From an uncultured Alphaproteobacteria bacterium (GTDB lineage: Bacteria; Pseudomonadota; Alphaproteobacteria; Caulobacterales; Parvularculaceae), in assembly GCA_963765165.1 (NCBI GenBank), contig CAVXVQ010000026.1, positions 85,636 through 149,635 on the forward strand: a stretch of DNA of 64,000 nucleotides, in the 5' to 3' direction. The notes beneath the pieces are model-generated. The model did not search any database. It was not told the DNA's origin and saw only the letters and a program-made list of their open reading frames with translations. A program made the translations under genes and the position numbers. Each line of letters starts with the position of its first letter. Position 1 is the stretch's first letter. Positions 207-62,111 of the stretch are shown in pieces.

Positions 207-1031
207 TTATTCGCGGTCCGGCTTGCCGAAATCACGAGGATCAAGCGCCTGAAGCACCGCGAGCACCAGCGGCGAGAGGCCCTTCATTTCAAATCCCGGC
301 GGATAAAGGCCTGACCAGTCGGACCCGCTGCGCGCCTGCGGGAAAATCGAGCCCGCAGCGTCGCGGAGCAGCGGCGCGAGCGACTTCTCGATCCGCTCGC
401 CGATGTCGTGGATCGCCTCTTTCGCGCCGCCGATCGTCTTGCGGAAACTTTCAACGACCTCGCCGACGGTTCGCTCGCGCGCGCCGTCATAAAAGACGTG
501 GCGGTTCGCTTGCGCCGCGGCCGGCAGGATCGCGGCCGCGCTCGTCGCGGCGTTCGCGGAGAGGAGCTTTTTCGCGCCGCCCGCACCGAGGAAATGCGCG
601 GCATAGAGTTCAGCGGCGTCGACCGCGCGCCCTAACGCGCCTTCAAGCGTCGCCTTGTTCTCGCGCGCAAGTTCGCCCGCAAGCGCGGCGGCTTTTTCCG
701 GATCGAAGCGCAGATCGAGTATCTGTTGCCGGCGCGCCGCATCGGCGACGCCGAGCCTCCCGTTCGCGCCAGCAGTGATGTCGGCGGCGTACTGACCAAG
801 CCCGTGGGCGGATCCGTATGTCTTCACCGCCTGAAGCCAGGTCTGCTCGATGAACTGGAAAAGCCCTGCGGCACTCGATGTCTTCGCCGTCGCTTCGGGG
901 TCGAGCGAACTCTCGCGCACGGCGACGCGGTAGAGATAGTCAAACCCGACGCCGGTCGTCTCGGCGGCCTTTTTAAGGGCGCCCGAAACCGCGGCCTTTG
1001 CAGCCGTCGCGGATTGGATGGCGTCGGTCAT
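207..1031 (-). CDS. Lytic transglycosylase (SLT-domain) protein
   Basis: AVRESS catalytic Glu motif, SSAAGLFQFIEQTW, LYAAHFLGAGGA. Confidence 0.85.
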   Translation of the reverse strand: MTDAIQSATAAKAAVSGALKKAAETTGVGFDYLYRVAVRESSLDPEATAKTSSAAGLFQFIEQTWLQAVKTYGSAHGLGQYAADITAGANGRLGVADAARRQQILDLRFDPEKAAALAGELARENKATLEGALGRAVDAAELYAAHFLGAGGAKKLLSANAATSAAAILPAAAQANRHVFYDGARERTVGEVVESFRKTIGGAKEAIHDIGERIEKSLAPLLRDAAGSIFPQARSGSDWSGLYPPGFEMKGLSPLVLAVLQALDPRDFGKPDRE

Positions 1032-1053
1032 GTCGAAAACTCACACTTCATGG

Positions 1054-2155
1054 TCAAGAAACTCCTAACTGGTTGAACCGCGCCGCCGAAAAGGCGGCGA
1101 TTGAGGGGTCGAGGCGTCCTTCGACGATGAGGCGGACAATCGCGTCCGCTGTCGCCGGGGCGAGCAGGATCCCGTTTCGATAGTGCCCGAGGGCGAAAAT
1201 GACGCCCTGCGTCTCCGGCGCCGGGCCGATGATCGGCGCGCCGTCTTTCGTCGCCGGACGAAGGCCGGCCCAGCGCTCTACTTCAACGGCGTCCTTCAAG
1301 GCAGGGAAGGCGAAGGCGGCGCCCTTTTTCAGCGCCTCGACGCGGGCGTCGTCGGCGTTCAATGACCAGTCGCCCGGCACTTCTGTCGCGCCGATGACGA
1401 CGCGTCCGTCCGCCTTCGGACAAAGATAGGCGCTCGACGTCCGAACGACGCGGTTTGGTCCCGACGCGGGGCGCTTGATCGCGAGCGCTTCGCCTTTGAC
1501 GGGAAAGGCGGCGCCCTTCGGCAGGTCGGCAAGACCCGCGACGCGCGCACCCGTCGCAATGACGACGCACGCCGCCGCCAGCGTCTCGCCGTCGAAAAGC
1601 CTGGCGTTGACCGCCCCCTTTTGCTCCGGCGCGAATATCGGCGACGGATTTCCCGCGCAGGATGCGCCCGCCGTCGCGACCAAGCGCGAGTTCGAGCGCC
1701 GTGCGCACAAGGCGCGGATCGATCTGGCCGTCATCCTTCGCATAGCGCCCGCCGAGGACAGAAGGCGCCATCGCCGGCTCGAGCTTAAGGACGTCGTCGC
1801 GCGTCAGCCGCTCGCCGCCGTCATGATCCTTCCCGAAGGCCGCCGTTTCCGTTTCATCGAAAGCGACCGACAAAACGCCGCGCTGAAAATCGCAGTCGAT
1901 CCCGCTCCTCTCGCGCAGCATTTCCGCAACTTCCGGCCAGCGCGACAGGCTTTGCGCGCTGAACGCCGTGAGATCCGCGCCCGTTTTATGCAGCGATGTC
2001 TCGAACGACGGCGCCAGCATCCCGGCGGCGGCGTTGGTCGCCGCCGGCATCCCTGAATCGACCACCGTCACGCCGACGCCGGCGCGCGCGAGCATCCATC
2101 CCGTCATCAATCCGATGACGCCGCCGCCCGCGATGAGGACGTCAGGACGGGTCAT
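1054..2155 (-). CDS. thiO: Glycine oxidase ThiO-like FAD-dependent oxidoreductase (frameshift near 1600-1640)
   Basis: GGGVIG, AAAGMLAP in ORF 1283..2155; WAGLRP and GHYRNGILLAP in ORF 1054..1743. Confidence 0.75.
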
Positions 2156-2166
2156 GCGGGCAACTG

Positions 2167-2385
2167 CTTCACCTCTCCCTTGGGAGAGGTCGAAACCGCG
2201 TCCTTCGAGACGCCCTGGTTCTCCTCATCCTGAGGGCGTTCGCGAAGCGAACGCGTCTCGAAGGACGAGGAGAACCAGGTTCCTCAGGAGAGGGCGGTTT
2301 CGGGTGAGGGGTCCGCCCTTTCCGTTCGAGTGCCGACCCCTCACCCGCGCGCTGCGCGCGCTGGCCTCTCCCAAGGGAGAGGCGG
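2167..2385. repeat. Nested intergenic palindromic (REP-like) element
   Basis: Outer CCTCTCCC/GGGAGAGG and GGGTGAGGGG/CCCCTCACCC hairpins enclose TCCTTCGAGACG...CCTCAGGA and TCATCCTGAGG...CGTCTCGAAGGA units; inverted relative at 50822-50958. Confidence 0.8.
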
Positions 2386-2403
2386 GGACTTGCGGCGCGA
2401 CCA

Positions 2404-2968
2404 TCACTCCTCCACCTTTTTCACGCCGGAAAGCAGCATCGTCTTTTCGCGCGATCCCGCCGAAGAGCCAAAGAAATAATTGACGACCGCAGCGGTCATC
2501 GTCGCCAGCGCGCCGAGCATGATTGCGAACTCGGTCTCGGCGCCGGGCGGCAATTTGCGCGCGACCATCGCGGCGAGCGTCAAAAAGAACCCGCCGACGA
2601 TCAGCGCGCCAAGGACGGACGGCGTCCAGTCGCCGAGCTTTGTCTGGCGGTCGCGCGCGCTCGCCCGGTCGCCGGCGTCGATGCGCTGTTCTTCGACGGC
2701 GGCGTTCCGGATCGCCAGACGAAACTCGTTCTCGGCGCGTTTGAGGGCGATCAGCTGATCGGCGCTCGCATTCGCCACCGCCTCGGCAAGATCGTCTTCC
2801 TCGACGTTTTCCTTGCCGAAGATCGCCCGCGCGATCGCCGCAACAGCGGCGCCGGCGAGCGGCCCGCCGAGCTGTTCTGCAATTTTCGGCGCGGTTTTCG
2901 CGACCGCCTTTTTTGAGACGGCCCCGCTTTTCAGCCTTTGCGGCGCCGTCGTCCTTATCGTCCGCCAT
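2404..2968 (-). CDS. 3TM holin-like membrane protein (GTA/phage type), frameshift in a T-run near 2910
   Basis: Joined frames give ...APKIAEQLGGPLAGAAVAAIARAIFG...DRASARDRQ...two TM segments...VVNYFFGSSAGS; SD AGGAG upstream. Confidence 0.6.
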
Positions 2969-3029
2969 CGTTCTTCTCCTTACGCAACTGGCGTCTTGAT
3001 CCTGGAACGAATGATAAGCCCTCCCGGAA

Positions 3030-3065
3030 GGTGTGGGATAAACTGGGGGATAAGTAGGGGGATAA
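3030..3065 (-). promoter_or_regulatory. 3x 12-bp tandem DnaA-box-like repeat (TTATCCC[A/C]C on - strand) upstream of the holin-like gene
   Basis: + strand ggtgtgggataa actgggggataa gtagggggataa; same family as 62040-62111. Confidence 0.7.
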
Positions 3066-3174
3066 GTCCGTCCGTTTTGATTAGGTCGCTGATATCATTA
3101 CAGAATTTTTATCCTTGAAACCGTTTGCGAAAAAAAGCGGATCAATTCAGGGTTGAATCCTCAGTTCGGCGTCG

Positions 3175-4437
3175 ATGACATTTTCGCGCGGATCTCGTTC
3201 TCTTTGGCTTGGGCAGATGGGCTGGCTTGCATTTCTTGCGGCGCTAACCGCGATTCCGGGGATCGCATCGTCGCATTTTGCCCGCAGAGCCGCCGCCGCT
3301 CCCGCCTTGACGATCGCCGCCGGCGCCGCGCTCGCGGTCTTTTTCGGCCTCTTCAATCTTCCTGAACCGCCAGCCGACTGGATCTCTTTCGCCGCGAAAG
3401 CTGGATTGGCGATGCTCGGCTTTGCGTCGGCTGCGCAGCTCCGCGTGTCAAAACTTGCGCGGCAATGCCCGTCGTCCTTCCGTCTCACCTGCGGCGGCGC
3501 GCCGCTTTATTTCTTCGCCTGCTCGCTTGCCGCTTTCATCATGCTGCCGCAGCTTTCCATTCCGTCGGCGATGCTGGTCGGCGGCGCGCTGATGCTGAAC
3601 GGCGCCGCCTTCGATCGGCGCGCCGTCGTCAACACGCCGGCGCCGGCCGCGATCAAGGCGGCGGTTCGCAACGAGAGCGCGGCGATCATCGCGCTCGGCA
3701 TCCCGCTCGCAACGCTTCTCGCCGCGAACGCGACCGTGTCGACGCCGAACGAGCCCTCGCTCGGCCCGTTGATGGTGTCGAGCCTTGCGGTGCTGAAAGG
3801 CTTTGCGTTCGGCGGCGTTGCAGGACTTGCCGCCAGTCTTGCCGGCGCGCTCTATCGCCGCCGCATGATGCAGCAGCGCGCGCTTGACGGACAGTTCGCC
3901 ATCCTCGCCGGCGTCGTCATGTTCGTCATCGGCCCGGCGATCGGCTGCGATCCGATCGTTGCGGCGACTGCGGTTGGCCTCCTCTGGGGCGAGCAGACGA
4001 GCGCCGCCTCAACGACGCGCCTCCGGATCCGCCGCTATGTCGATCGCGCGGTGACGCCGCTCGCCTATTTCACCTTCGGCGCCGTGCTCTTGCCGCGCCT
4101 TTTGCAGGCCGACATGCTCGCCGTCGTTTTCGCGCTCGCCGCCGTCACCGTGATGCGCGCGGGACCACGTCTTGCAATCCTCCAGACGCCGATGCTGCCC
4201 AAGGAAAGCCAGATGTTCCTTGCGTGGTTCGGCGGCGCGCCGGGCGCGGCGTCCGCGCTATTCGTGATGACGCTCCTCGGCAATCCCGCGCTCATCGACG
4301 CCGACGCGGTCCTTATGGTGACGACGCTTGCGATCCTCTTCGGCGTCGCCGCCGCGCGCCTCACCTCGCGCCCGCTCGCAAGGCTTTATGTCCGCCAGTC
4401 GGCGATCGCAAAGCAACGGCGGGCTTGGGTCGGGTAG
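3175..4437 (+). CDS. Cation:proton antiporter (CPA1/NhaP-like), divergent
   Basis: ~12 TM segments, FLAWFGG motif, R-N-E-S at the ES..ND position. Confidence 0.65.
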   Translation: MTFSRGSRSLWLGQMGWLAFLAALTAIPGIASSHFARRAAAAPALTIAAGAALAVFFGLFNLPEPPADWISFAAKAGLAMLGFASAAQLRVSKLARQCPSSFRLTCGGAPLYFFACSLAAFIMLPQLSIPSAMLVGGALMLNGAAFDRRAVVNTPAPAAIKAAVRNESAAIIALGIPLATLLAANATVSTPNEPSLGPLMVSSLAVLKGFAFGGVAGLAASLAGALYRRRMMQQRALDGQFAILAGVVMFVIGPAIGCDPIVAATAVGLLWGEQTSAASTTRLRIRRYVDRAVTPLAYFTFGAVLLPRLLQADMLAVVFALAAVTVMRAGPRLAILQTPMLPKESQMFLAWFGGAPGAASALFVMTLLGNPALIDADAVLMVTTLAILFGVAAARLTSRPLARLYVRQSAIAKQRRAWVG

Positions 4438-4489
4438 GCTTTTCGCCATTGACATCCGGGGACGGCCCCGCCGACGTTTCCCGTGGCAA

Positions 4490-4566
4490 GCGCCCGTAGC
4501 TCAGCTGGATAGAGTGCCAGACTTCGAATCTGGATGTCGGGAGTTCGAGTCTCTCCGGGCGCGCCA
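4490..4566 (+). tRNA. tRNA-Arg, anticodon TCG
   Basis: GCGCCCG acceptor stem, TAGCTCAGCTGGATAGAG D-arm, CCAGA-CTTCGAA-TCTGG anticodon arm, GTTCGAGT T-loop, encoded CCA; TTGACA at 4449-4454. Confidence 0.95.
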
Positions 4567-4631
4567 TTGCGTCTAGCGGCCTGTAACCGCTGACCAAACT
4601 TTCCACAGTGGCGGATCGCCCCGGCATGGCG

Positions 4632-4647
4632 GTAACCACCTGTTAAC
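4632..4647 (+). promoter_or_regulatory. Possible CtrA site upstream of the TipN-like gene
   Basis: GTAA-N7-TTAAC, one mismatch to TTAA-N7-TTAAC. Confidence 0.35.
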
Positions 4648-4754
4648 CGGCGATGGCGATGCCGCCAATGCCCGACAAGTCGTTGAACGGCGCGCTCAAT
4701 TGGCGTTCACTGGAAATTGGGTTATTCGAGGCTAGTGTTGCGCCGGGCGAAGCC

Positions 4755-7222
4755 ATGACGAATTCCGCAGAGATAACAGACGCTTCGCGGCGGGACGCCA
4801 GCGTGGAACTCGAAAGCGCAAAACTGCGCCTTCGCGGGATCTCGGAGTTCCGGGGATGAAAATCCGCCGTCGGAATTTCGCACCTTTGAAAAATGGGCGG
4901 CGTCGGAAGGACGCGGCCGCGACCGTCAGGTCGTGAGGCTCGGCCGCCTCGGCGCGCGTCTTGAGACATGGGCGCGGTTCGCGGCCGTCCTCGTCTTTGC
5001 GTGCGTGTTCCTCGGCTGGCCGATCGGCGCGTTGATGGCGCATGTCAAAGTCGCGGGCTCGCTCGCGGGCTTCGCGCTTTCGGGCGGCTACACCGCCTGG
5101 GCGGTCGCCGTCGGCATCATCGTCCCCCTCTGCCTCTTCCTGCTCGGCCATCTCGCCGCGCGCATGACGACGATGATCGGCGCCGCCGAAATCGATCGCG
5201 GCCGTCGCGCAGCAGATGATGCAGCCTGACCGCGCCGCGATTGAGAACGTCCAGACCGTCGGCTCGGTCGTCCGTGAACAGATGGAGGCGCTCAACGCCG
5301 GCATCGACGACGCGCTGATCCGCCTTGCCTCCGCCGAAGCGATGATCCGCCAGCATGTCGGCGCGATCGAACAGGCGGGCGCCGCCGTCGAGAGCCGCAC
5401 CTCGAACGCCGCCGAGCGCGTCGCCGCCGAACGCGCGCGCCTCATGGACCTCACCGAAACCCTCAACGTCCGCGCCGACGAGTTCGCGACCGCGATCGCC
5501 GAGAAGGCGCAAGCCAATATCGAGGCGCTTCACAACGCCGGGACGGCGACGCTCTCCGCCGAGGCGCGTTTCGACGACCGCCTCGCCCGGCTTGAAGCGG
5601 CGGCCCAGCGCGCGCTGCAAAGTTTCGAGGCGCTCTCTTACGCGCTTTCCGAAGCCGACGAACACATGCGCACGACCTCGGGCTCGATTGAAACGTCGGC
5701 GAGCGAGGTGAAGCGCGTCTCCGAACTCGCCGCGCGCATCGCCGACGCCGCCGCCGAATCCGCCGCGAGAAACGCCGCCAATATCGGCATGTTCTCCGCG
5801 CAAGCCTCCGAGCGCGCGCAAAAGGCCGCCGAACAATCGATCGAGATCTCCCGGCGAGAGGCCGAGCGCGCGACCGACGCCGCCGTCGAATTTGCCGTGC
5901 GCGAATCGCAGCGCGTGACCGACGCCGCCGCCAAGGCGGTCGAGGGTGTCCGCGCCGCAACAAAGAGCGCGGTCGAGACCGCCGCGGTCGACGCCGAAAA
6001 AGCCGCCGCCGCCGCGAACCTCGTTTCCGAAGCGGCGCGCCTGACGACGGCGGCGGCGCGCGAAGCGTCGGTTGAAGTCATGAAGGCGGGCGAAGTCGCC
6101 AAGAAAAGCGCCGACGACGCGATCGGGATTTCAGAAGCGGCGACCCTGCGCGTCGAGACGCGCAACACGGAGCTTGCCGCCGCGAGAGCCTCGCTTGAGG
6201 CCGAGAACACGCGCCTTGAATCGCTGATCGACGAGCAGCGAAAGCGCGCGGACCGCCTCGCCGACGCGATTGCGACGCAGACGGAGCGCCTTTCCAAGCT
6301 TGCTGAAAATCAGCTGCGCGAACAGGAAGCGGCGGCCCGCCTTGCCGAAGCGCAGGCGCAGATCCAGCAGACGCGCGCCGCCGAATCCGAAAGGCAGTCG
6401 CGTCACGACGCTGAAAAGCGTGCAAAGGAAAAGGAAGAAGCCGAACGCGCGGCGAAGGCGGAAGCGGCAAAGCTCGACGCCGAACGCGCGGCGAAAATCG
6501 AAGCCGAGGCGAAGGCCAAGAAGGCCGCGGCGGCGGACAAGGAAAAGCTGAAAGCGAAGCCGGCGTCGGCGCGCGCGTCCGGCGCCGAGCCGTCGAACGT
6601 CCTTGAGCTCGGCAAGGCGTCGCGCCAACGCGCGCCGCAGCCGCCGCAAGGCGGCGGCGCAGCGGCGACCGCCGCGCGTCTTGAAGATCTCGCCGAAGAC
6701 ATTGCGCGGTCGAAAAACGGGTCCGCTGAAAGCGCTCCCAAGGACGAGGAACGTCGCAGCAAGGACGGCGTTTCCTGGCGCGAGATTCTCTCGGCGACCG
6801 ACGAGGCGGAACCCCTCGATCTCGGCGCCGCGGACCGTCGCGGCGACGCGGCCCGCGCCGCAACCTCAAATGCGGTCAAGATCATCGCGGATCTGCAGGC
6901 CTTCACGCTCGATCTCGAAACCCGCCTTTACGGCGATCCGCCGCCGGCGCTGCTTGAGCGTTTCGAGCGCGGCGACCGCAACGTCTTTGCGAACCGGATC
7001 CTCCGACTCAACGAAGCGGACGTGAAGCGGCGCATCCGCGCCGAATCGAGCCGCGACAAGTCGTTCGAACGCGGCATCCACGATTTCCTGCAGGGCTTTG
7101 AACGCCTGCTCGAAGACGCAACAACGTCGGCGACGGCGGATGAAGAGCTTGAGGAATATCTCTCCTCGCCGCTCGGCCGCGTCTACCTCCTCGTCGGCGC
7201 AACGGTCGGCTATTTCGCGTAA
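4755..7222 (+). CDS. TipN-like polar landmark coiled-coil protein (frameshifts near 4855 and 5190)
   Basis: Two N-terminal TM helices, long Ala/Glu coiled coil, C-terminal GVSWREIL...YLSSPLGRVYLLVGAT resembling TipN/GPR C-termini. Confidence 0.6.
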
Positions 7223-56605: not shown

Positions 56606-57601
56606 TCAGGCCCCCGCGAAATGCTTGCGAGGCGACTGCGCCTCGCCCGCGCTCCAGCGCTTGACGAACTCTTCAAGCTCCCGGTCGCCGCCTTCGGGAA
56701 GAACGATCTTCAATTTTACATATTGATCGCCGGCTGGCGCGCCCTCGCGCGCGACGCCGCGGCCCTTCAAGCGCAAGACCGCGCCCGAGCTCGTGTTCTT
56801 CGGCACCGAGATCGACACGTCGCCCGCGATCGTCGGCGCGGTGATCTTGCCGCCGAGGACCGCCTCTTTGAGCGTGATCGGCGCATCGATATGAATGTCG
56901 TCGCCGTCGCGCTCGAAGAGCGAATGCGGCTTCACCGCGATCTCGACATAGACGTCGCCGGCGCCGCCGCCGCCGATGCCGGATTCGCCCTGCGCTTTAA
57001 GGCGCAGGGTCTGTCCTTGCGCAACGCCGGCCGGGATCGCGATATCGAGCGTCTTGCCGTCCGCCATGGTGACGCGCTTTTTCGCGCCGCAGGCGGCGTC
57101 GAGAAAGTCGACTTCCAGCCCGTATTTGACGTCGCGCCCGCGAAATTGCGCGCCGGCGGCGCCAGCGCTTGCGCCTGCATGGGCGCCGGCGGCCGAATGC
57201 CCGCCAGATCGGCCACGCCCGAAAAGGTCGGCGAAAATATCGCCGAGATCGTCAAAATCGCCCTTGTTGGCGAAGCCGCCGGAATAGGCGGCGCCGCCCG
57301 GGCCGTAGGCGCCGGCGCCTGCGCCTTGTCCGCCCGCGCCGGGAGACCACTGGCGCGAGGGATGGGCGGCGCGCTCGCGGCCTTGTTCGTCAAGCTCGCC
57401 GCGGTCGTATTTCTTGCGGCGGTCGGCGTCGCCGACGATGTCGAAGGCGGAGGAGACTTCCTTGAATTTCTCCTCGGAGGCCTTGTCGTCCTTGTTGCGG
57501 TCGGGATGGAATTTTTTCGCAAGGTTGCGGAACGCGGCGCGGATTTCCGCGTCGGACGCCGACGACGGCACGCCGAGCACGCTGTAAGGATTTCTCGCCA
57601 A
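56606..57601 (-). CDS. DnaJ class B (CbpA-like) co-chaperone
   Basis: J-domain with HPD, G/F-rich region, DnaJ C-terminal domain, no Zn finger. Confidence 0.92.
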   Translation of the reverse strand: MARNPYSVLGVPSSASDAEIRAAFRNLAKKFHPDRNKDDKASEEKFKEVSSAFDIVGDADRRKKYDRGELDEQGRERAAHPSRQWSPGAGGQGAGAGAYGPGGAAYSGGFANKGDFDDLGDIFADLFGRGRSGGHSAAGAHAGASAGAAGAQFRGRDVKYGLEVDFLDAACGAKKRVTMADGKTLDIAIPAGVAQGQTLRLKAQGESGIGGGGAGDVYVEIAVKPHSLFERDGDDIHIDAPITLKEAVLGGKITAPTIAGDVSISVPKNTSSGAVLRLKGRGVAREGAPAGDQYVKLKIVLPEGGDRELEEFVKRWSAGEAQSPRKHFAGA

Positions 57602-57720: not shown

Positions 57721-58263
57721 TCAGCGCCGGCTCTTTGCCCAGGCGGACCAATCAACCTGCTCGCTGGCGACTTCGACCAGGGCGTCCGGCGCCGCGTTAT
57801 CAAGGAAGACGACGAGGTTGGCGCACTCATAGCGCGCGCTCGGAGCGATCAACCCGTCATAGCCAAGGAACGCGGCGGCGGCGCCGATTTCCTGCGTCCT
57901 TGGATAGAGGATCTCGCGGTACCGGCTCATCTCGACGCCGAGCGCAGCGAGTTGCTCGATGTCGAGGAGTTGAAGCGCCTTTGGCAGCGTCGCGCCGAGC
58001 TTCCAGAGGACATGCCTCATCCGAGACGGAAAGACCGGCTGGCCGCGGCTCAAGTGAAAATGAACCTCGGATAGCGCGCCGTCGCGCTCTTCGGAGCCAT
58101 AAAGCACCGACAAATCCGAGGGATTCCATCGTCCTGCGCCGCGCGATCCGTCGGCCGGCGACCGACCCTCCCGCACGACGCGCCAGACCGTTCGGTCGTA
58201 AAGGGCGGGCGCGATCTTGCTGATCGCGTCGAGAAGGCGGTCGTCAAGCGGGCGGCGCTCCAT
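57721..58263 (-). CDS. RES-domain toxin (NAD+ phosphorylase family)
   Basis: VWRV, GRWN, LY...ALSE, GYDGLIAPSAR. Confidence 0.88.
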   Translation of the reverse strand: MERRPLDDRLLDAISKIAPALYDRTVWRVVREGRSPADGSRGAGRWNPSDLSVLYGSEERDGALSEVHFHLSRGQPVFPSRMRHVLWKLGATLPKALQLLDIEQLAALGVEMSRYREILYPRTQEIGAAAAFLGYDGLIAPSARYECANLVVFLDNAAPDALVEVASEQVDWSAWAKSRR

Positions 58264-58272
58264 CACCATTCA

Positions 58273-58415: not shown

Positions 58416-58772
58416 TCAAAGATAAACGCCCGCGTCGAGCCGCTCGATCACTTCAAGGACTTCAGCCGTCCGTCCACTGACGATAAGATCGTAAGGCCGC
58501 GCGCCGACAAGCTGCGGATGCGCCGATTGCAGCCAGAGGCGCGCCTCATCTGGCTCGTAGAAATCGGAAAGCCGCTCGGCGACCCATCGCAGCTCGGCGA
58601 TGATCTGCTGCTTCTCGATCGTCGGCCCGCTTTCGCCGCTCTGCCAACGCGACACGGTCGGCGGCGACACGCCGAGAATGTTGGCGATGTCGCGGCCGGT
58701 AAGACCCCCGCGCTGGCGGAGGTCGTCCAAAAGCCGGGAAACGGCGGTTTTCTGAGCAATTGCGGCGGACAT
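58416..58772 (-). CDS. Xre/MbcA/ParS-type antitoxin
   Basis: HTH IANILGVSPPTVSRW; C-terminal ARLWLQSAHPQLVGARPYDLI. Confidence 0.9.
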   Translation of the reverse strand: MSAAIAQKTAVSRLLDDLRQRGGLTGRDIANILGVSPPTVSRWQSGESGPTIEKQQIIAELRWVAERLSDFYEPDEARLWLQSAHPQLVGARPYDLIVSGRTAEVLEVIERLDAGVYL

Positions 58773-58821: not shown

Positions 58822-58908
58822 GGTATGAAACTCATTTACAACCATTGGCCTGGCCCTTTTGTGCGAAGCCCGACAGCGCGAAGCGGCTTCAGGCTGAGGT
58901 CGGGGGTC

Positions 58909-61211
58909 CTAAACATTGACCTCCCCCCAGCCTCCGACCCCCACCAGATCCGAGATTTGCGCGACTTTGACGTTGAGCGGCGGGCGTCCGCTTGGGTAAG
59001 CCGACGGCGGGAAATCCGCCGCCAGCATCACCGCCAGATAGGTGAACGCCGCGCTTGAAACCTCCGCTGTCCGGATAAGCGCGGCGTTCGCCCAGATCTC
59101 GACGCGGTAGCGCTCGAAGGCCTCGCTCAAGGGAACGTCCTCGCCGGCCCAGCTGAATCGCCGCCTTTGCGCGTTCTGCGCTTCCAGCTGACGAGGAGAT
59201 CGCCCTCCGCCGTTTCGACGGCGAGGAGATGGACGGGCGAAAGCGGTTTAACCCCCGCGCGTCGGCCGTGAAGGTCTTTGTACGGAATGTTTCTTCGCTC
59301 GGGTGGTCGTCGGCGGGCCCCGCGGACCAGTCGAAGGAAATCCCGCGAAGATCGAACGGCGCCTCGGCCTGCACGACCGCGGCGGTGAGGAGAACGAAGC
59401 GCGCGCCGGCGCCGGCGCCCGCGGCGGCTTGCTTTTCCGTGCCGTTCTGGCCGCGAAGGAGCCCTTTCAGACTCCAGACGCCGTCCGGCCCGAGCGTCGC
59501 GTCGCGGAATTGCAGGACCTCGAAGCCCTCGGCGGTTTCGATCGCGGCGGCGTTGGCGCCGGCGAAGACTTCCTCCGGCTCGCGCGAGGCGAGCGCGCCG
59601 AAGGAGAGCCGCACACGGATTTCCCGCTCGTCCCATCGCCCGGAAACGCCGGGCGCCATCGCTGCATCGAGCGTTCCGATCACCGCGCGCTGCGTCGCGG
59701 TTGCGGCGAGCGCGGTCCCGTTCCGGTAAAGCGCGACCGCGCCCGGCCAGGGATCGGCGTAGACGGCAAGATAGGGCGCCGCCGGATCGTCGTCGTCCCG
59801 AAGGAGCGGCAGGTTCATCAACTCAAAGGCCGGACGCCCGAATTGCGGCGCGGCGGCGGGCGTCTTGAACCCTCCGGTAGCGATCGGCGCCTCATAGACG
59901 GCCGGCGACACGCGGACGGCCTCGACTTTGCGCGCGAGGCCGTCGGTGATCTGCACAATGCGGAAGTCGCGGGAGACGGAGTCCAAGATCGAGCGTGATC
60001 GCGTCGCCGGGTTCGAGCATCGCGCGCGACGGCGGGAGCGCAAAAATCACTGTCTCGCGCATCACGCCGGCGTCGGCGAGAATGGAGCGCGCCCGCGCCG
60101 CCGCGCTCGCTTCATCCATCACGGCCGGGAGTTCGAGCCCGATTTCGCGGATATCGTCCGCATAAGGACTGCGCGCCTCGGCGAGCGCCGGGAGATAGTC
60201 GCCGCCCTCGTCGATATAGCCGAGACGAACGGCGGTCGGCAGGTCCGATTTCTGGCCGACGGTGAGCGCGAAGGCGCCGCCGCCCTTATCGCCGCCTTCG
60301 TCGACGAGCGCGGCGCGGTCAATGAGCGCAAGGCTCGCCGCGCCGCGCGCCTGAAAGCGCAAGCCGTCCGCCGTTTCGACCATGTCGAACTGGAAGACGT
60401 CGGCGAGCGGATCGATCATCTGGCGCGGGGAAAGCGGCCGGTCGACGATGTAGCCCGCGAGCGAACCTTTGAGCGCCGACGCGTCGACCGCCGTCACGCC
60501 GCTTTCAGCGGCGAGCGCTTCGACGAGCGCGTCCAGGGGCGCGCGGGTCAGCCGCCCGTTCAGCCAGTGGCCCTTTTCCCAATTCGCGGCGTCGCCCCAA
60601 AGATCGGCGCGCGCCGGAAAATACGGCCAGGGCCGCGCATCGACCGCATAGACGTAAAGCCGGTCCGTCTTCGATCATCGGACCGCCGTCATGCGTCTCA
60701 TTATGCGTCCGCCAGTAATCGTGGACCGCTTCGAGCGCGCGCCGCTGGACGAGATCGTCGCGCGCGCCGTTTGAAAACGGCGGCAGCGCGGATTCCGAGG
60801 ATTTCGGATCGACGAAGACGTTCGGCGCGTTCGCCCCCTTGTCGACGGCGGGAACGCCGATTTCGGTGAAGCGGATCGGCTTTGATTTCGGAACCCACGC
60901 CGTCGCCGCCGCATTGCGCGTGAAAGTCGGGCGGTCATGATGCGCGTTCCGCCACCAGTTCCTGATGTCCTTGGCGCGCCAGACCCAGGGCTCGTCATAC
61001 GTCGCGTCAGTAATCGGCGTTCGAATTTGCGCGGCGCGGTCGGCCTCGCTCGCGTAATACCAGCTGTAATTCTCGCCGCCTTCGATATTCGCCGCGATAT
61101 AGGCGCGGTCATACTGGCTTTTGAAGCCCGCCTTGAGGTCGGCGTGATCGAACCCGTCGCGCCAGTCGGCGAGCGGGGGATAATAATCGACGCCGACGAA
61201 GTCGATCGAGG
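58909..61211 (-). pseudogene. GTA baseplate 'megatron' (g15-like), N-terminally truncated, several frameshifts
   Basis: IDFVGVDYYPPLADWRDG, EPWVWRAKD, GANAPNVFVDPKSSES, GHWLNGR, VYADPWPG, LLRGQNGTE, VAQISD. Confidence 0.88.
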
Positions 61212-61623
61212 CGTCCGACCACGCCGCGTGAAACTGGTGACCGCGCAGGCCATCGGGGTCTTCGGACGAAAAGACGTAGGCGACGGAGCCGTTCTTCGGA
61301 AAGACGAGGCGCCGGCGCGAAGGCTCGTAAGTCGGGCGCTCGGCGGGCGGGCCGATATGCGCGAGCCCGGAATTTCCCTCGATCATGACTTCCCTCCCGT
61401 CGGCGTAGGTTTCGGAGACGAGAGCGACGCGCGCGGGCTCTGTCCTTCTGCGGACGAAATCGCGCACCCATTCGGCCCCGGCGCGCGTTTTTCCGGCGCC
61501 GCGCCCGCCAATGAGGAGCCACAAGGTCCACTCGTCGCCGAGGGGCCATTTTTGGTGTAGGTGCGCGGAATGCTCATACCAGTCATGCTCCGGCACTCCC
61601 TCTTTCAGCAGCTTGCGCGCCAT
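61212..61623 (-). pseudogene. GTA large terminase, N-terminal ATPase part only, fused in frame to megatron
   Basis: WLLIGGRGAGKTRAGAEWV, REVMIEG, SSEDPDGLRGHQFHAAWSD, then an abrupt switch to megatron sequence. Confidence 0.88.
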
Positions 61624-61982
61624 CAGCTTGAGCACCGCCCTTAGTTCCGCCGCCTGATAATCCGTCGATGTAATTTGCGAACCGTCGGGCGAGTTCTTGT
61701 TCGTATCGGTCAAGATCGGCGTCGCTGACGCCTCCGCTGTTTTCATGCGCGGTTGTTTCCTTGCGTTTGCGGGCGGCGAGCGCATCGACTTCGGTCGCGA
61801 CTTCGAACCAGCGAAAGCGCGGTGCGCGCTGCGCGGTCAAACTCGACATTGTCTTCCGACTCGGTCGTGTCGATCGTCGCCAGCCGCTTGCGGGCGTTGA
61901 TCAGCGCAAGGTCAAAGATCGTCTGAACGACCGTTTCGGTCGTCGCGCTGAGTTCGATCGTCGCTTTGCGTTCTTCCGTCAT
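61583..61982 (-). CDS. Putative GTA small terminase (g1-like), frameshift near 61800
   Basis: MTEERK...FDRAARTALSLVR joined to VATEVDAL...DLDRYEQELARR; overlaps the large terminase start. Confidence 0.6.
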
Positions 61983-62039: not shown

Positions 62040-62111
62040 GGTGTGGGATAAGTTGTGGGATAAGTAGGGGGATAAGGTGGGGGATAAATAGGGGGATAAG
62101 TAGGGGGATAA
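62040..62111 (-). promoter_or_regulatory. 6x 12-bp tandem DnaA-box-like repeat upstream of the GTA operon
   Basis: + strand ggtgtgggataa gttgtgggataa gtagggggataa ggtgggggataa atagggggataa gtagggggataa. Confidence 0.75.

Follow-up and report, generated by a model that had tools for sequence, protein, structure and literature searches.

A putative terminase::megatron deletion scar in RcGTA-type clusters of uncultured Parvularculaceae

How does a GTA large terminase come to run in frame into the distal part of a megatron, and does such a joint belong to one genome or recur? The question is raised by a locus within a 64,000-nucleotide stretch of DNA from an uncultured Parvularculaceae bacterium (the window, whose genome is labelled G000 in all comparisons). 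The open reading frame at 60505..61785 on the minus strand matches two Pfam profiles, Terminase_6N at residues 91-191 (profile positions 2-103 of 215) and GTA_TIM at residues 178-373 (profile positions 81-282 of 299). Around the joint the chimera reads ..LRGHQFHAAWSD|ASIDFVGVDYYPPLADWRDG. The joint itself, TGG TCG GAC G (61212..61221, minus strand), encodes W-S-D and the first base of the next codon. The Pfam matches and the alignment to intact relatives confirm the in-frame fusion at a W-S-D microhomology that had been proposed in the initial annotation.

The terminase (g2) part occupies 61213..61785 on the minus strand, has a putative start codon and extends from Walker A (GGRGAGKT) to Walker B (..AAWSD). 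It aligns to residues 39-228 of the intact terminases of G008 and G016 and is as conserved as intact copies. Ala stands in place of the Walker B Glu, nothing from the catalytic Glu onward is retained and Pfam finds no Terminase_6C, so that the window copy is not a complete large terminase with a Walker A and B ATPase and a nuclease domain. The loss of the Walker B Glu and of the nuclease domain had been correctly recognized, as the truncated Terminase_6N match also indicates.

The megatron (g15) part consists of the C-terminal ~770 codons (58909..61212, minus strand). It carries the remainder of the TIM-barrel (peripheral) domain, Phage-tail_3, Rcc01698_C and the natural stop. By tblastn it corresponds to residues ~535-1301 of the g15 of G008 and G016, spread over four frames. 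The downstream frames match Phage-tail_3 (6.7e-36) and Rcc01698_C (6.8e-27) in Pfam, in an order co-linear with the intact relatives, and the remnant is 74-78% identical to the nearest intact g15. The chimera does not end at 60505, as was initially assumed, since the g15 remainder runs on to 58909 in other frames. A full-length megatron of ~1300 aa with iris and adhesin domains and a whole TIM barrel is not present in the window.

In intact relatives, the breakpoint sites read ..QFDAAW[S/G/C]DE in the terminase and ..HLDPLW[S/A]D in g15. The g15 motif, first given as LWxxxxIDF, is actually LW[S/A]D-x-x-I-x-F. W-S-D is therefore present in both parents and the joint does fit both of them, as had been suggested. 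In the intact cluster of G008 the two sites read TGGTCTGA, with eight identical bases, whereas in most intact clusters, which do not include the direct parent allele of the window, the shared stretch is only TGG..C.GA. The terminase and g15 W-x-D sites lie 10.5-12.0 kb apart in five intact clusters (G008, G016, G010, G043 and G047), while in the window the two remnants abut directly (tblastn). In close relatives both parent genes are intact, with order and chromosomal site unchanged, and the TIR and DnaJ neighbour genes are common to the window and these relatives. A distant fused lineage shows the same order (TIR/TPR gene, g1, chimera, DnaJ-like gene).

None of the portal, protease, capsid, tail and tape-measure genes that separate g2 from g15 in a functional RcGTA-type cluster lies between them here. 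Neither portal (PF04860) nor capsid (PF05065) was found elsewhere in the assembly of the window, whose stated completeness of 67% is probably depressed by indel errors. The missing particle core anticipated in the initial annotation amounts to about 11 kb, and the assignment to a GTA non-producer lineage is supported as well. A deletion of ~10.5-12 kb would have taken the C-terminal half of the terminase, the portal, protease, capsid, adaptors, tail, tape measure, hub and peptidase, together with the first ~530 megatron codons. It would have joined the terminase Walker B ..W-S-D in frame to a W-[S/A]-D triplet of the megatron TIM-barrel domain and would leave the cell unable to build particles. 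We consider it probable that the locus is a genuine chromosomal RcGTA-type deletion scar, independently recurrent, that marks short-lived non-producers in uncultured Parvularculaceae.

The region upstream was described at the outset as intact, and this holds: all six of the six 12-bp TTATCCCCC repeats are present and their spacing is that of intact clusters of the genus. The array (62046..62111, minus strand; six phased repeats, NNNTTATCCCCC on the coding strand) precedes g1 and is presumed to be the operator of the GTA promoter. Nine intact clusters of the genus carry a six-repeat array equally far from the terminase, and seven further repeat arrays occur in the G000 genome. The first gene of the cluster, the small-terminase-like g1 (61583..61982, minus strand), is split into two frames in the assembly by a frame change near 61802, where an otherwise identical 151-nt environmental contig lacks one base. 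Its first 60 residues are 44% identical to the 141-aa g1 of G049.

The joint is found in 4 of the 37 species of this uncultured Parvularculaceae genus (G000, G049, G001 and G012). One further genome of the genus retains only g14-g15 and five have no match to the terminase::g15 query. The breakpoints in G049, G001 and G012 fall at terminase residue ~228 and g15 residue ~535 in the numbering of the intact references. G001 and G012, both 96% complete, carry neither portal nor capsid; G008 and G016 carry both. Proteins from metagenomes and from other genera also contain the joint, and besides the window it is identical at the codon level in G049, G001, G012, P0002, P0003, P0004, P0039, P0040 and P0122. 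A junction profile compared with 1.84 billion representatives retrieved the fused proteins P0121 and P0122, as well as P0124 and P0123, among the 150 matches listed; since this set is clustered at 50%, fused counts from it are a lower bound. A scan of metagenome contigs yielded 27 terminase loci, and in none did the match to the query extend over the joint.

Trees place these fusions apart from one another. Fused genomes occupy three places in the tree of isoleucyl-tRNA synthetase (IleRS), and the tree of the g15 C-terminal part is congruent with it. An AU test on this g15 part rejects a single fused clade (p-AU 8.8e-17). In a 77-row tree with 60 intact rows, 10 changes are needed to account for the 11 fused tips. 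Each fused allele is a single tip and never the sister of another; fused/intact sister pairs include P0018/P0014 (support 99) and P0002/P0012 (95). Several independent events gave rise to the joint, and in every case the closest relatives of the affected lineage keep an intact cluster.

Why the same site is reused is a separate matter. The terminase W-x-D breakpoint is also joined to g15 at ..FTE|[IT]GCPAVDK in P0018 and in Hyphococcus P0111, to g15 at ..DWSE|(Y to D)FGYHP in P0124, and to unrelated sequence in the Rhizobiaceae MAG L135. Among 74 loci sampled by way of their terminase, 4 have the break exactly after W-x-D. In 60-nt local alignments within five intact clusters, the g15 site ranks 4th to 137th among the partners of the terminase site, and in a 12-nt end-anchored comparison of intact clusters 50 to >3000 sites match the terminase breakpoint as well or better. 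DNA homology was rejected as the cause of site reuse because neither type of alignment singles out the g15 site. The motif TGGNCNGA is not enriched either (10 found for 6.9 expected; 12 for 8.4). The microhomology-mediated deletion first put forward is correct in that a W-S-D microhomology is present at the joint, but microhomology alone does not explain it, as dozens to hundreds of other sites match the terminase breakpoint equally well or better. The choice of site is a mechanistic puzzle because neither homology length nor distance accounts for it. A model of neutral scars leaves this main oddity unexplained, since one codon-level joint is found in at least seven well-separated lineages without a cause in DNA similarity.

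Three explanations of the reuse were weighed. The leading one, to which we give slightly less than an even chance, combines a mutational preference for TGG-NCN-GA(Y/R) triplets with the survival of products that stay in frame. Selection for a chimera that is tolerated or useful is a less probable candidate that still carries real weight, and spread of one old allele by recombination is improbable. A broader proposal, tentative and clearly behind the preferred reading, is that GTAs of Parvularculaceae and of at least some other Alphaproteobacteria possess a built-in, codon-precise weak point at the Walker B W-x-D. Recurrent recombination with the megatron W-x-D/E would collapse the cluster to an in-frame chimera, either because DNA is cut or switched there or because only beta-strand-swapped chimeras are tolerated or favoured, and would provide a steady supply of non-producers.

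The fate of the fused alleles bears on whether the chimera is a scar or a protein in use. Beside the joint, contigs of run X5 share 95-96% identity with the window, compared with no more than 78-86% for the nearest species representatives. These contigs run on into an intact g15 (..DGRFFHLDPL|W), and on the terminase side they diverge from the fused sequence once past the joint. Sequence comparison with these contigs suggests that the deletion in G000 is young. Other fused alleles also look young and appear to be starting to decay. In G012, a 145-nt deletion breaks the frame of the terminase part and two operator repeats are mutated; G001 is missing four of its six operator repeats. We infer that the chimera is a functionless by-product, which marks recent non-producer ('cheater'-type) lineages that do not persist.

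The alternative that survives best, although unlikely, is that the chimera is a kept, working protein in which a terminase P-loop piece is combined with the megatron central and fibre-binding domains, selection limiting the joints that are seen. A reduced derivative with a function, an option drawn from the initial annotation, is likewise a possible reading. Of the ten class-1 chimeras, eight have a single open frame (G000 counted after indel removal), including those of G049 (1005 aa) and G001 (1006 aa); the others are G012, with a split terminase, and the partial P0122. Both class-2 chimeras are open. Protein-database chimeras are biased to open frames, since a gene with a broken frame would not yield a single protein call. 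End branches of the fused copies in the g15 tree measure 0.17-0.24, no longer than those of intact copies, and open frames with ordinary branches would also be expected under purifying selection on a functional chimera. The g15 part of G012 is open despite its broken terminase part, and G002 retains a full g15 after loss of g1-g13. Moreover, the terminase part is conserved as in intact genomes, Walker A is kept, and all joints lie at a predicted beta-strand end followed by an acidic residue (W-x-D, W-S-E, F-T-E).

Pairs of fused copies give a dN/dS of 0.25-0.30 (pairwise Nei-Gojobori), like intact pairs at equal dN, but such pairwise values mix the history before and after deletion. If the events are independent, the paths lie mostly in the pre-deletion history and dN/dS is no test of constraint after it. 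Set against the pattern of an exapted gene, the frames are open and dN/dS is in this mixed range, but there is no clade of fused copies only; that every fused allele is a lone tip is unexpected for a long-lived useful gene. The operator is shrunk in G001 and mutated in G012, where the terminase part is also dispensable. A predicted fold of the N-terminal 400 aa of the G049 chimera, from a 46-row alignment, had a mean pLDDT of 60 and a pTM of 0.58, with the Walker A region below 50; values this low speak neither for nor against a folded chimera.

Somewhat less probable than a working chimera is that the window copy is a true pseudogene whose four g15 frameshifts, and that of g1, are real mutations of the strain. 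All four g15 indels are private and lie on the minus strand. A +1 indel at 60664..60669, which ends the homology of the open reading frame at 60505-61785, is absent from G012, G001, G008 and G016 and, near 60669, from an environmental contig ~95% alike. A second +1 indel (59981..59987) is absent from a contig ~94% alike and a +2 indel (59154..59157) from one ~96% alike, while a -1 indel near 59255 (59254..59256) lies outside the coverage of the listed environmental contigs. With the four removed, the g15 part is open, with no stop before ..GEVNV* at 58909. The indels fall outside long homopolymers, one of them inserts two bases, and five occur in ~3 kb compared with three in ~26 kb of the genes checked outside IleRS. 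The environmental contigs without three of the indels are only 94-96% identical and therefore come from other strains.

The same assembly nevertheless breaks the essential IleRS into at least six pieces, with ~7 frame changes in 2.9 kb, a gene split in none of 36 relatives, and fumarase C, PtsP and an MFS gene show one frame change each. Its stated completeness (3.1 Mb, 26 contigs) contrasts with 90-100% for relatives of the same size. Furthermore, the 151-nt contig without other differences has no extra base at 61802, and no nonsense codon appears in 770 codons after indel removal. As IleRS is broken in this indel-rich assembly, the four frameshifts that seem to end the chimera are no evidence of decay. 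They are most likely assembly errors, and so most likely is the apparent truncation at 60505.

It is improbable that the fused copies descend from one old deletion allele, identical by descent and either carried as a producer/non-producer polymorphism or passed between species. Transfer could occur for example in GTA particles, able to carry a 3 kb scar but not a 14 kb cluster, and later recombination with intact alleles would make the flanks look native. Consistent with this, the codon-level joint is identical in ten alleles and the base after GAY is G in all ten, when only ~41% of intact g15 have a G-initial codon there. In addition, G001 and G012 share 15 nt (TTC GAT GCA GCG TGG) left of the joint that are absent from the clade to which G001 belongs, and intact alleles from near-conspecifics occur in nature alongside the G000 type.

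The AU test on the g15 parts nevertheless rejects their common ancestry. To the right of the joint, G001 is native to its clade from the first codons: the first 14 (..IGIDQYAPL) have DNA identical to G020 and G047. A terminase part in the native clade is not rejected (p-AU 0.48). An introgression of the fused allele into G001 was considered, because the terminase tree put G001 outside its clade on a long branch, and was discarded on this p-AU; the likeness among fused copies in early windows came from terminase-derived codons in the alignment. The junction of the same terminase codon to three other partners implies separate events. One old allele would also need repeated transfer across 25-45% protein divergence without donor tracts.

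No listed contig from four sequencing runs bridges 61212-61221 by at least 31 nt, and a run search with sampled words of the window listed no run above 19% and no RNA run. All genomes concerned are metagenome-assembled and the window's own assembly is error-rich, but an assembly or chimeric-read artefact is very improbable, as the joint recurs in four assemblies made in different studies with different assemblers (one on a 1.03 Mb contig), the shared stretch of at most 8-10 nt is much shorter than the words that assemblers use, the two 96%-complete genomes G001 and G012 lack the genes in question, and a G000-like joint is also present on a separate Logan contig of run SRR20217205. The initial caution that the joint might be a misassembly, or a snapshot private to this genome, is dispelled by its presence in the assemblies of G049, G001 and G012 and in several metagenome proteins.

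The survival of altruistic, lethal GTA production despite non-producers is a standing question. Under the preferred reading of a recurrent deletion scar, GTA loss has here a recognizable molecular signature, one joint recurring at tips beside intact relatives. If it arises de novo at a measurable rate, it would serve as a direct marker, countable by PCR, of how often non-producers are born and what becomes of them in cultures and metagenomes. If the codon-precise weak point is true, the dynamics of GTA producers and cheaters would be measurable by a single junction PCR. Annotation also calls for caution: such chimeras stand in the databases under names such as 'glycoside hydrolase TIM-barrel-like' or 'phage tail' protein, and in long-read MAGs rich in errors their decay looks more advanced than it is.

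In the open-access texts searched, we found no description of an in-frame joint of terminase Walker B to megatron that is reused with codon precision. Pseudogenised or lost GTA clusters have been read as cheater lineages (Kogay and Zhaxybayeva 2024, PMC10883770) and GTA 'small clusters' have been described (Shakya et al. 2017, PMC5721377). As in those studies, GTA production is lost repeatedly in our cases, at the tips of a clade in which the cluster is otherwise kept. However, both studies treat loss in general terms, whereas here an in-frame joint is reused with codon precision.

The closest known system is the RcGTA-type head-tail cluster of Rhodobacter capsulatus, g1-g15, in which g2 is rcc01683 and the megatron g15 is rcc01698 (Bardy et al. 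2020, PMC7296036). The window resembles it in the order g1-g2...g15, in the Pfam families of both parents and in a chromosomal site common to relatives with the full cluster. According to the RcGTA domain map (PMC7296036), the g15 part that is kept comprises the end of the peripheral domain and the central and fibre-binding domains. Unlike RcGTA, the window lacks at least 11 genes between g2 and g15. Its terminase differs by the absence of the catalytic Glu, the rest of the ATPase domain and the nuclease domain, and its megatron by that of the iris/penetration and adhesin-like domains and the first part of the TIM barrel.

Two Pfam families match the 426-aa ORF at 60505-61785 (- strand), Terminase_6N at residues 91-191 (profile positions 2-103 of 215) and GTA_TIM at residues 178-373 (profile positions 81-282 of 299). 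The protein includes GGRGAGKT and later FSSEDPDGLRGHQFHAAWSD, which directly abuts ASIDFVGVDYYPPLADWRDG at the joint. As located by tblastn with the proteins of intact relatives, the terminase part ends at reference residue 228 and the megatron (g15) part begins at approximately 535. The remainder of g15 is spread downstream over three other frames, all on the - strand: one with Phage-tail_3 (59892-60497), one with Rcc01698_C (58889-60043) and a further frame with the final 73 codons (58909-59130). The host genus of uncultured Parvularculaceae is represented by metagenome-assembled genomes only. A Pfam family search for portal and capsid found neither in the assembly to which the window belongs (contig C26, 85636-149635; 3.10 Mb, 26 contigs, rated 67% complete).

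The initial annotation had read this ORF as the scar of a terminase::megatron deletion. This is confirmed, since the joint is reproduced in other genomes. A junction-spanning query searched against the 37 species of the genus gave contiguous matches beyond the window in G049, G001 and G012, all broken at the same codons. The chimera is a single open frame of 1005 aa in G049 (on a 209 kb contig) and of 1006 aa in G001. In G012 (1.03 Mb contig) the g15 part is open to its natural stop and the terminase part carries a frame-shifting deletion of about 145 nt. Portal and capsid are absent from G001 and G012, each 96% complete, and present in G008 and G016. With the joint shared and these genes missing, misassembly is excluded and the deletion is shown to be fixed in the chromosome. 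Searching proteins with the chimera of G049 retrieved further fusions in which all four Pfam families occur: P0002, P0003 and P0004, at 72-75% identity, plus P0039 and P0040, at 56-57%, which represent another genus-level group. The joint of all five is identical to that of the window. P0122 carries the same type of joint (class 1) in a more distant lineage.

The frameshifts are a different matter. DNA alignment of the g15 part revealed four indels private to the window (- strand): +1 near 60669, +1 near 59987, -1 near 59255 and +2 near 59154. Once these are removed, the g15 frame is open to its natural stop (..GEVNV*) with zero nonsense codons. When 24 long genes of G012 were mapped onto the window's genome, the isoleucyl-tRNA synthetase (IleRS; C24:16200-19200) proved to be cut into six or more (about 8) frames, and fumarase C, PtsP and an MFS transporter showed one frame change each. 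Among the 37 species, IleRS is fragmented in the window's genome only. Three of the four g15 indels are absent from environmental contigs 94-96% identical to the window, and a 151-nt environmental contig, otherwise identical, has one base fewer at 61802, inside the small terminase-like gene g1, which coincides exactly with the g1 frame break. The private indels, the IleRS fragmentation and the environmental contigs argue that the frameshifts are, with high probability, assembly errors; the apparent truncation of the chimera would then be an artefact, and in the living cell the chimera very likely forms one frame of about 960 codons. The low completeness score is probably due to such indel errors, so that no pseudogene should be called in this genome without support from reads.

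In G008, G016, G010, G043 and G047, all of the genus, the cluster is complete and a single contig carries both terminase and g15. At the breakpoint the intact terminase reads ..QFDAAW[S/G/C]DE LCKW and the intact g15 ..FFHLDPLW[S/A]D-x-N-I-x-F. Both parents therefore carry W-x-D, as the initial annotation had proposed. In G008 the stretch common to both sites is TGGTCTGA; in most other intact clusters it is TGG..C.GA only. The two sites lie 10.5-12.0 kb apart.

The IleRS tree places the fused genomes in three positions: the window's genome and G049 with G002 and G045; G001 with G043, G047, G020, G011 and G006; and G012 alone. A tree of the g15 C-terminal part (756 columns, joint codons excluded) is congruent with it. 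In the AU test, monophyly of the fused copies was rejected (delta lnL 246, p 8.8e-17), as were all partial fused groupings tried. The G001 DNA just 3' of the joint, GAT CAG TAT GCG CCC CTT, is as in G020 of its own clade and unlike that of the other fused genomes. In a 76-row tree the fused proteins are all single tips beside full-length g15 (e.g. P0018/P0014, P0002/P0012), with no fused-fused sister pairs. By parsimony, the 11 fused tips (with 60 intact rows) require 10 changes, on a quick tree with many weak forks and a long P0124 branch. The fusion events are independent.

The terminase breakpoint is also used with other partners. In P0018 (same genus) and P0111 (a Hyphococcus sp. RefSeq protein), ..AAWSD(E) is joined to [IT]GCPAVDK, the residues that follow ..RFTE of g15. 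In P0124, ..TAWAD is joined to DFGYHP where the intact g15 reads ..DWSEYFGYHP; the change of Tyr to Asp is consistent with one or two leading bases of the terminase Glu codon having been kept. In the Rhizobiaceae MAG locus L135 (JABABQ010000021.1, 3683-4387), the cut falls after W-C-D, again at the Walker B codon used elsewhere, and the terminase is followed by 58 unrelated residues, ARTIWGSIVALIAAAASAF..; no g15 was found near it, and a two-component system sits downstream. Other joints do occur: P0123 (1388 aa, ENA metagenome protein) is a different in-frame terminase::megatron fusion, in which the terminase extends halfway into its nuclease domain and g15 begins ahead of a complete TIM barrel. 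In a terminase-anchored sample, 4 of 74 loci break exactly after W-x-D and the normal terminase continues in the other 70. The base following GAY is G in all fused alleles; among intact g15, the codon at the corresponding position starts with G in only about 41%, and many have Pro. Separately, the metagenome protein P0201 (129 aa) has a flavodoxin/WrbA-like N-terminus, ..DLLWAD, running into g15 ..ANFDFVGIDNYLPLSDWRD, so that here yet another, third kind of alpha/beta protein meets g15 at its W-A-D site, through a common LWAD. It may be an assembly chimera.

Local similarity does not single out the g15 site, which ranks 4th to 137th against the terminase breakpoint in five intact clusters; in a 12-nt end-anchored comparison, dozens to thousands of sites equal or beat it. 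Nor is the motif TGGNCNGA over-represented; its codon-phase occurrences in G008 fall in the terminase, the portal gene and four g15 places, two of which are the observed deletion partners. In HMMER, intact g15 proteins match positions ~38-70 of the junction profile, in its terminase-derived half; the alignment pairs terminase ..VAYVFSSEDPDGLRGHQFDAAWSD with g15 ..ISYAADWSEYFG..DG.FFHLDPLWSD. Behind this cross-match is a weak resemblance of two successive strand-plus-acid segments, terminase ..VAYVFSSED..QFDAAWSD and g15 ..ISYAADWSE..FFHLDPLWSD. Both g15 strand ends, W-S-E and W-S-D, serve as deletion partners. The resemblance may be relevant to DNA pairing or to protein tolerance; an AlphaFold2 model of the N-terminal 400 residues of the chimera is of low confidence.

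Upstream of the chimera lie g1 and a six-fold phased 12-bp repeat (62046-62111); within the genus, nine intact GTA clusters conserve its number and its position before g1. Phased 12-bp repeats with a TTATCCCCC core, three to six per array, form eight arrays in the window's genome. The others are at 3036-3065 in the window and, elsewhere, at C7:83573-83626, C7:199228-199269, C12:111130-111195, C14:103585-103626, C22:134585-134614 and C26:9264-9317 (contig coordinates). Together they look like the operator set of a GTA regulon, still present after the core deletion. The neighbours of the chimera include a TIR-like ORF (from 63059), a DnaJ-like ORF (56606-57601) and, immediately past the g15 stop on the - strand, two small ORFs, a putative Xre/DUF2384-type antitoxin (58416-58772) and a putative RES-domain toxin (57721-58269), all identified by eye. 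The same neighbourhood (TIR/TPR gene, g1, chimera, DnaJ-like gene) recurs in a distant fused lineage.

In one sediment metagenome (run X5), contigs flanking the joint on each side share 95-96% identity with the window. On the g15 side one runs on into an intact g15, with ..DGRFFHLDPL ahead of the Trp, and on the terminase side one diverges from the fused sequence past the joint. Of the species representatives compared at these flanks (14 for the terminase, 19 for g15), the nearest are only 78-86% identical. Either the deletion in this lineage is young, then, or the species is polymorphic. Decay has begun in other fused genomes; in G012 the terminase part is broken and two of the six presumed operator repeats are mutated, and four of six are lost in G001, while six of six are kept in the window's genome and G049. 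Five of the 37 species gave no match to the terminase::g15 query. G002 (locus L101, C164:15300-33000, 463-5100) has lost all but a full-length open g15 and the NlpC/P60 peptidase g14; unrelated DNA bearing repeats has taken the place of the operator through g13. Partial loss of the GTA thus comes in a second form, with g15 again spared.

The deletion described by the initial annotation therefore stands but not as a one-off: on the sequences compared, it is one case of a recurrent, codon-precise collapse of GTA clusters. GTA loss is already known; within a limited literature search, the reused joint had not been described. The fused state has many origins, is confined to tips and shows early decay followed by absence, the pattern predicted by published discussions of GTA cheaters (PMC10883770).
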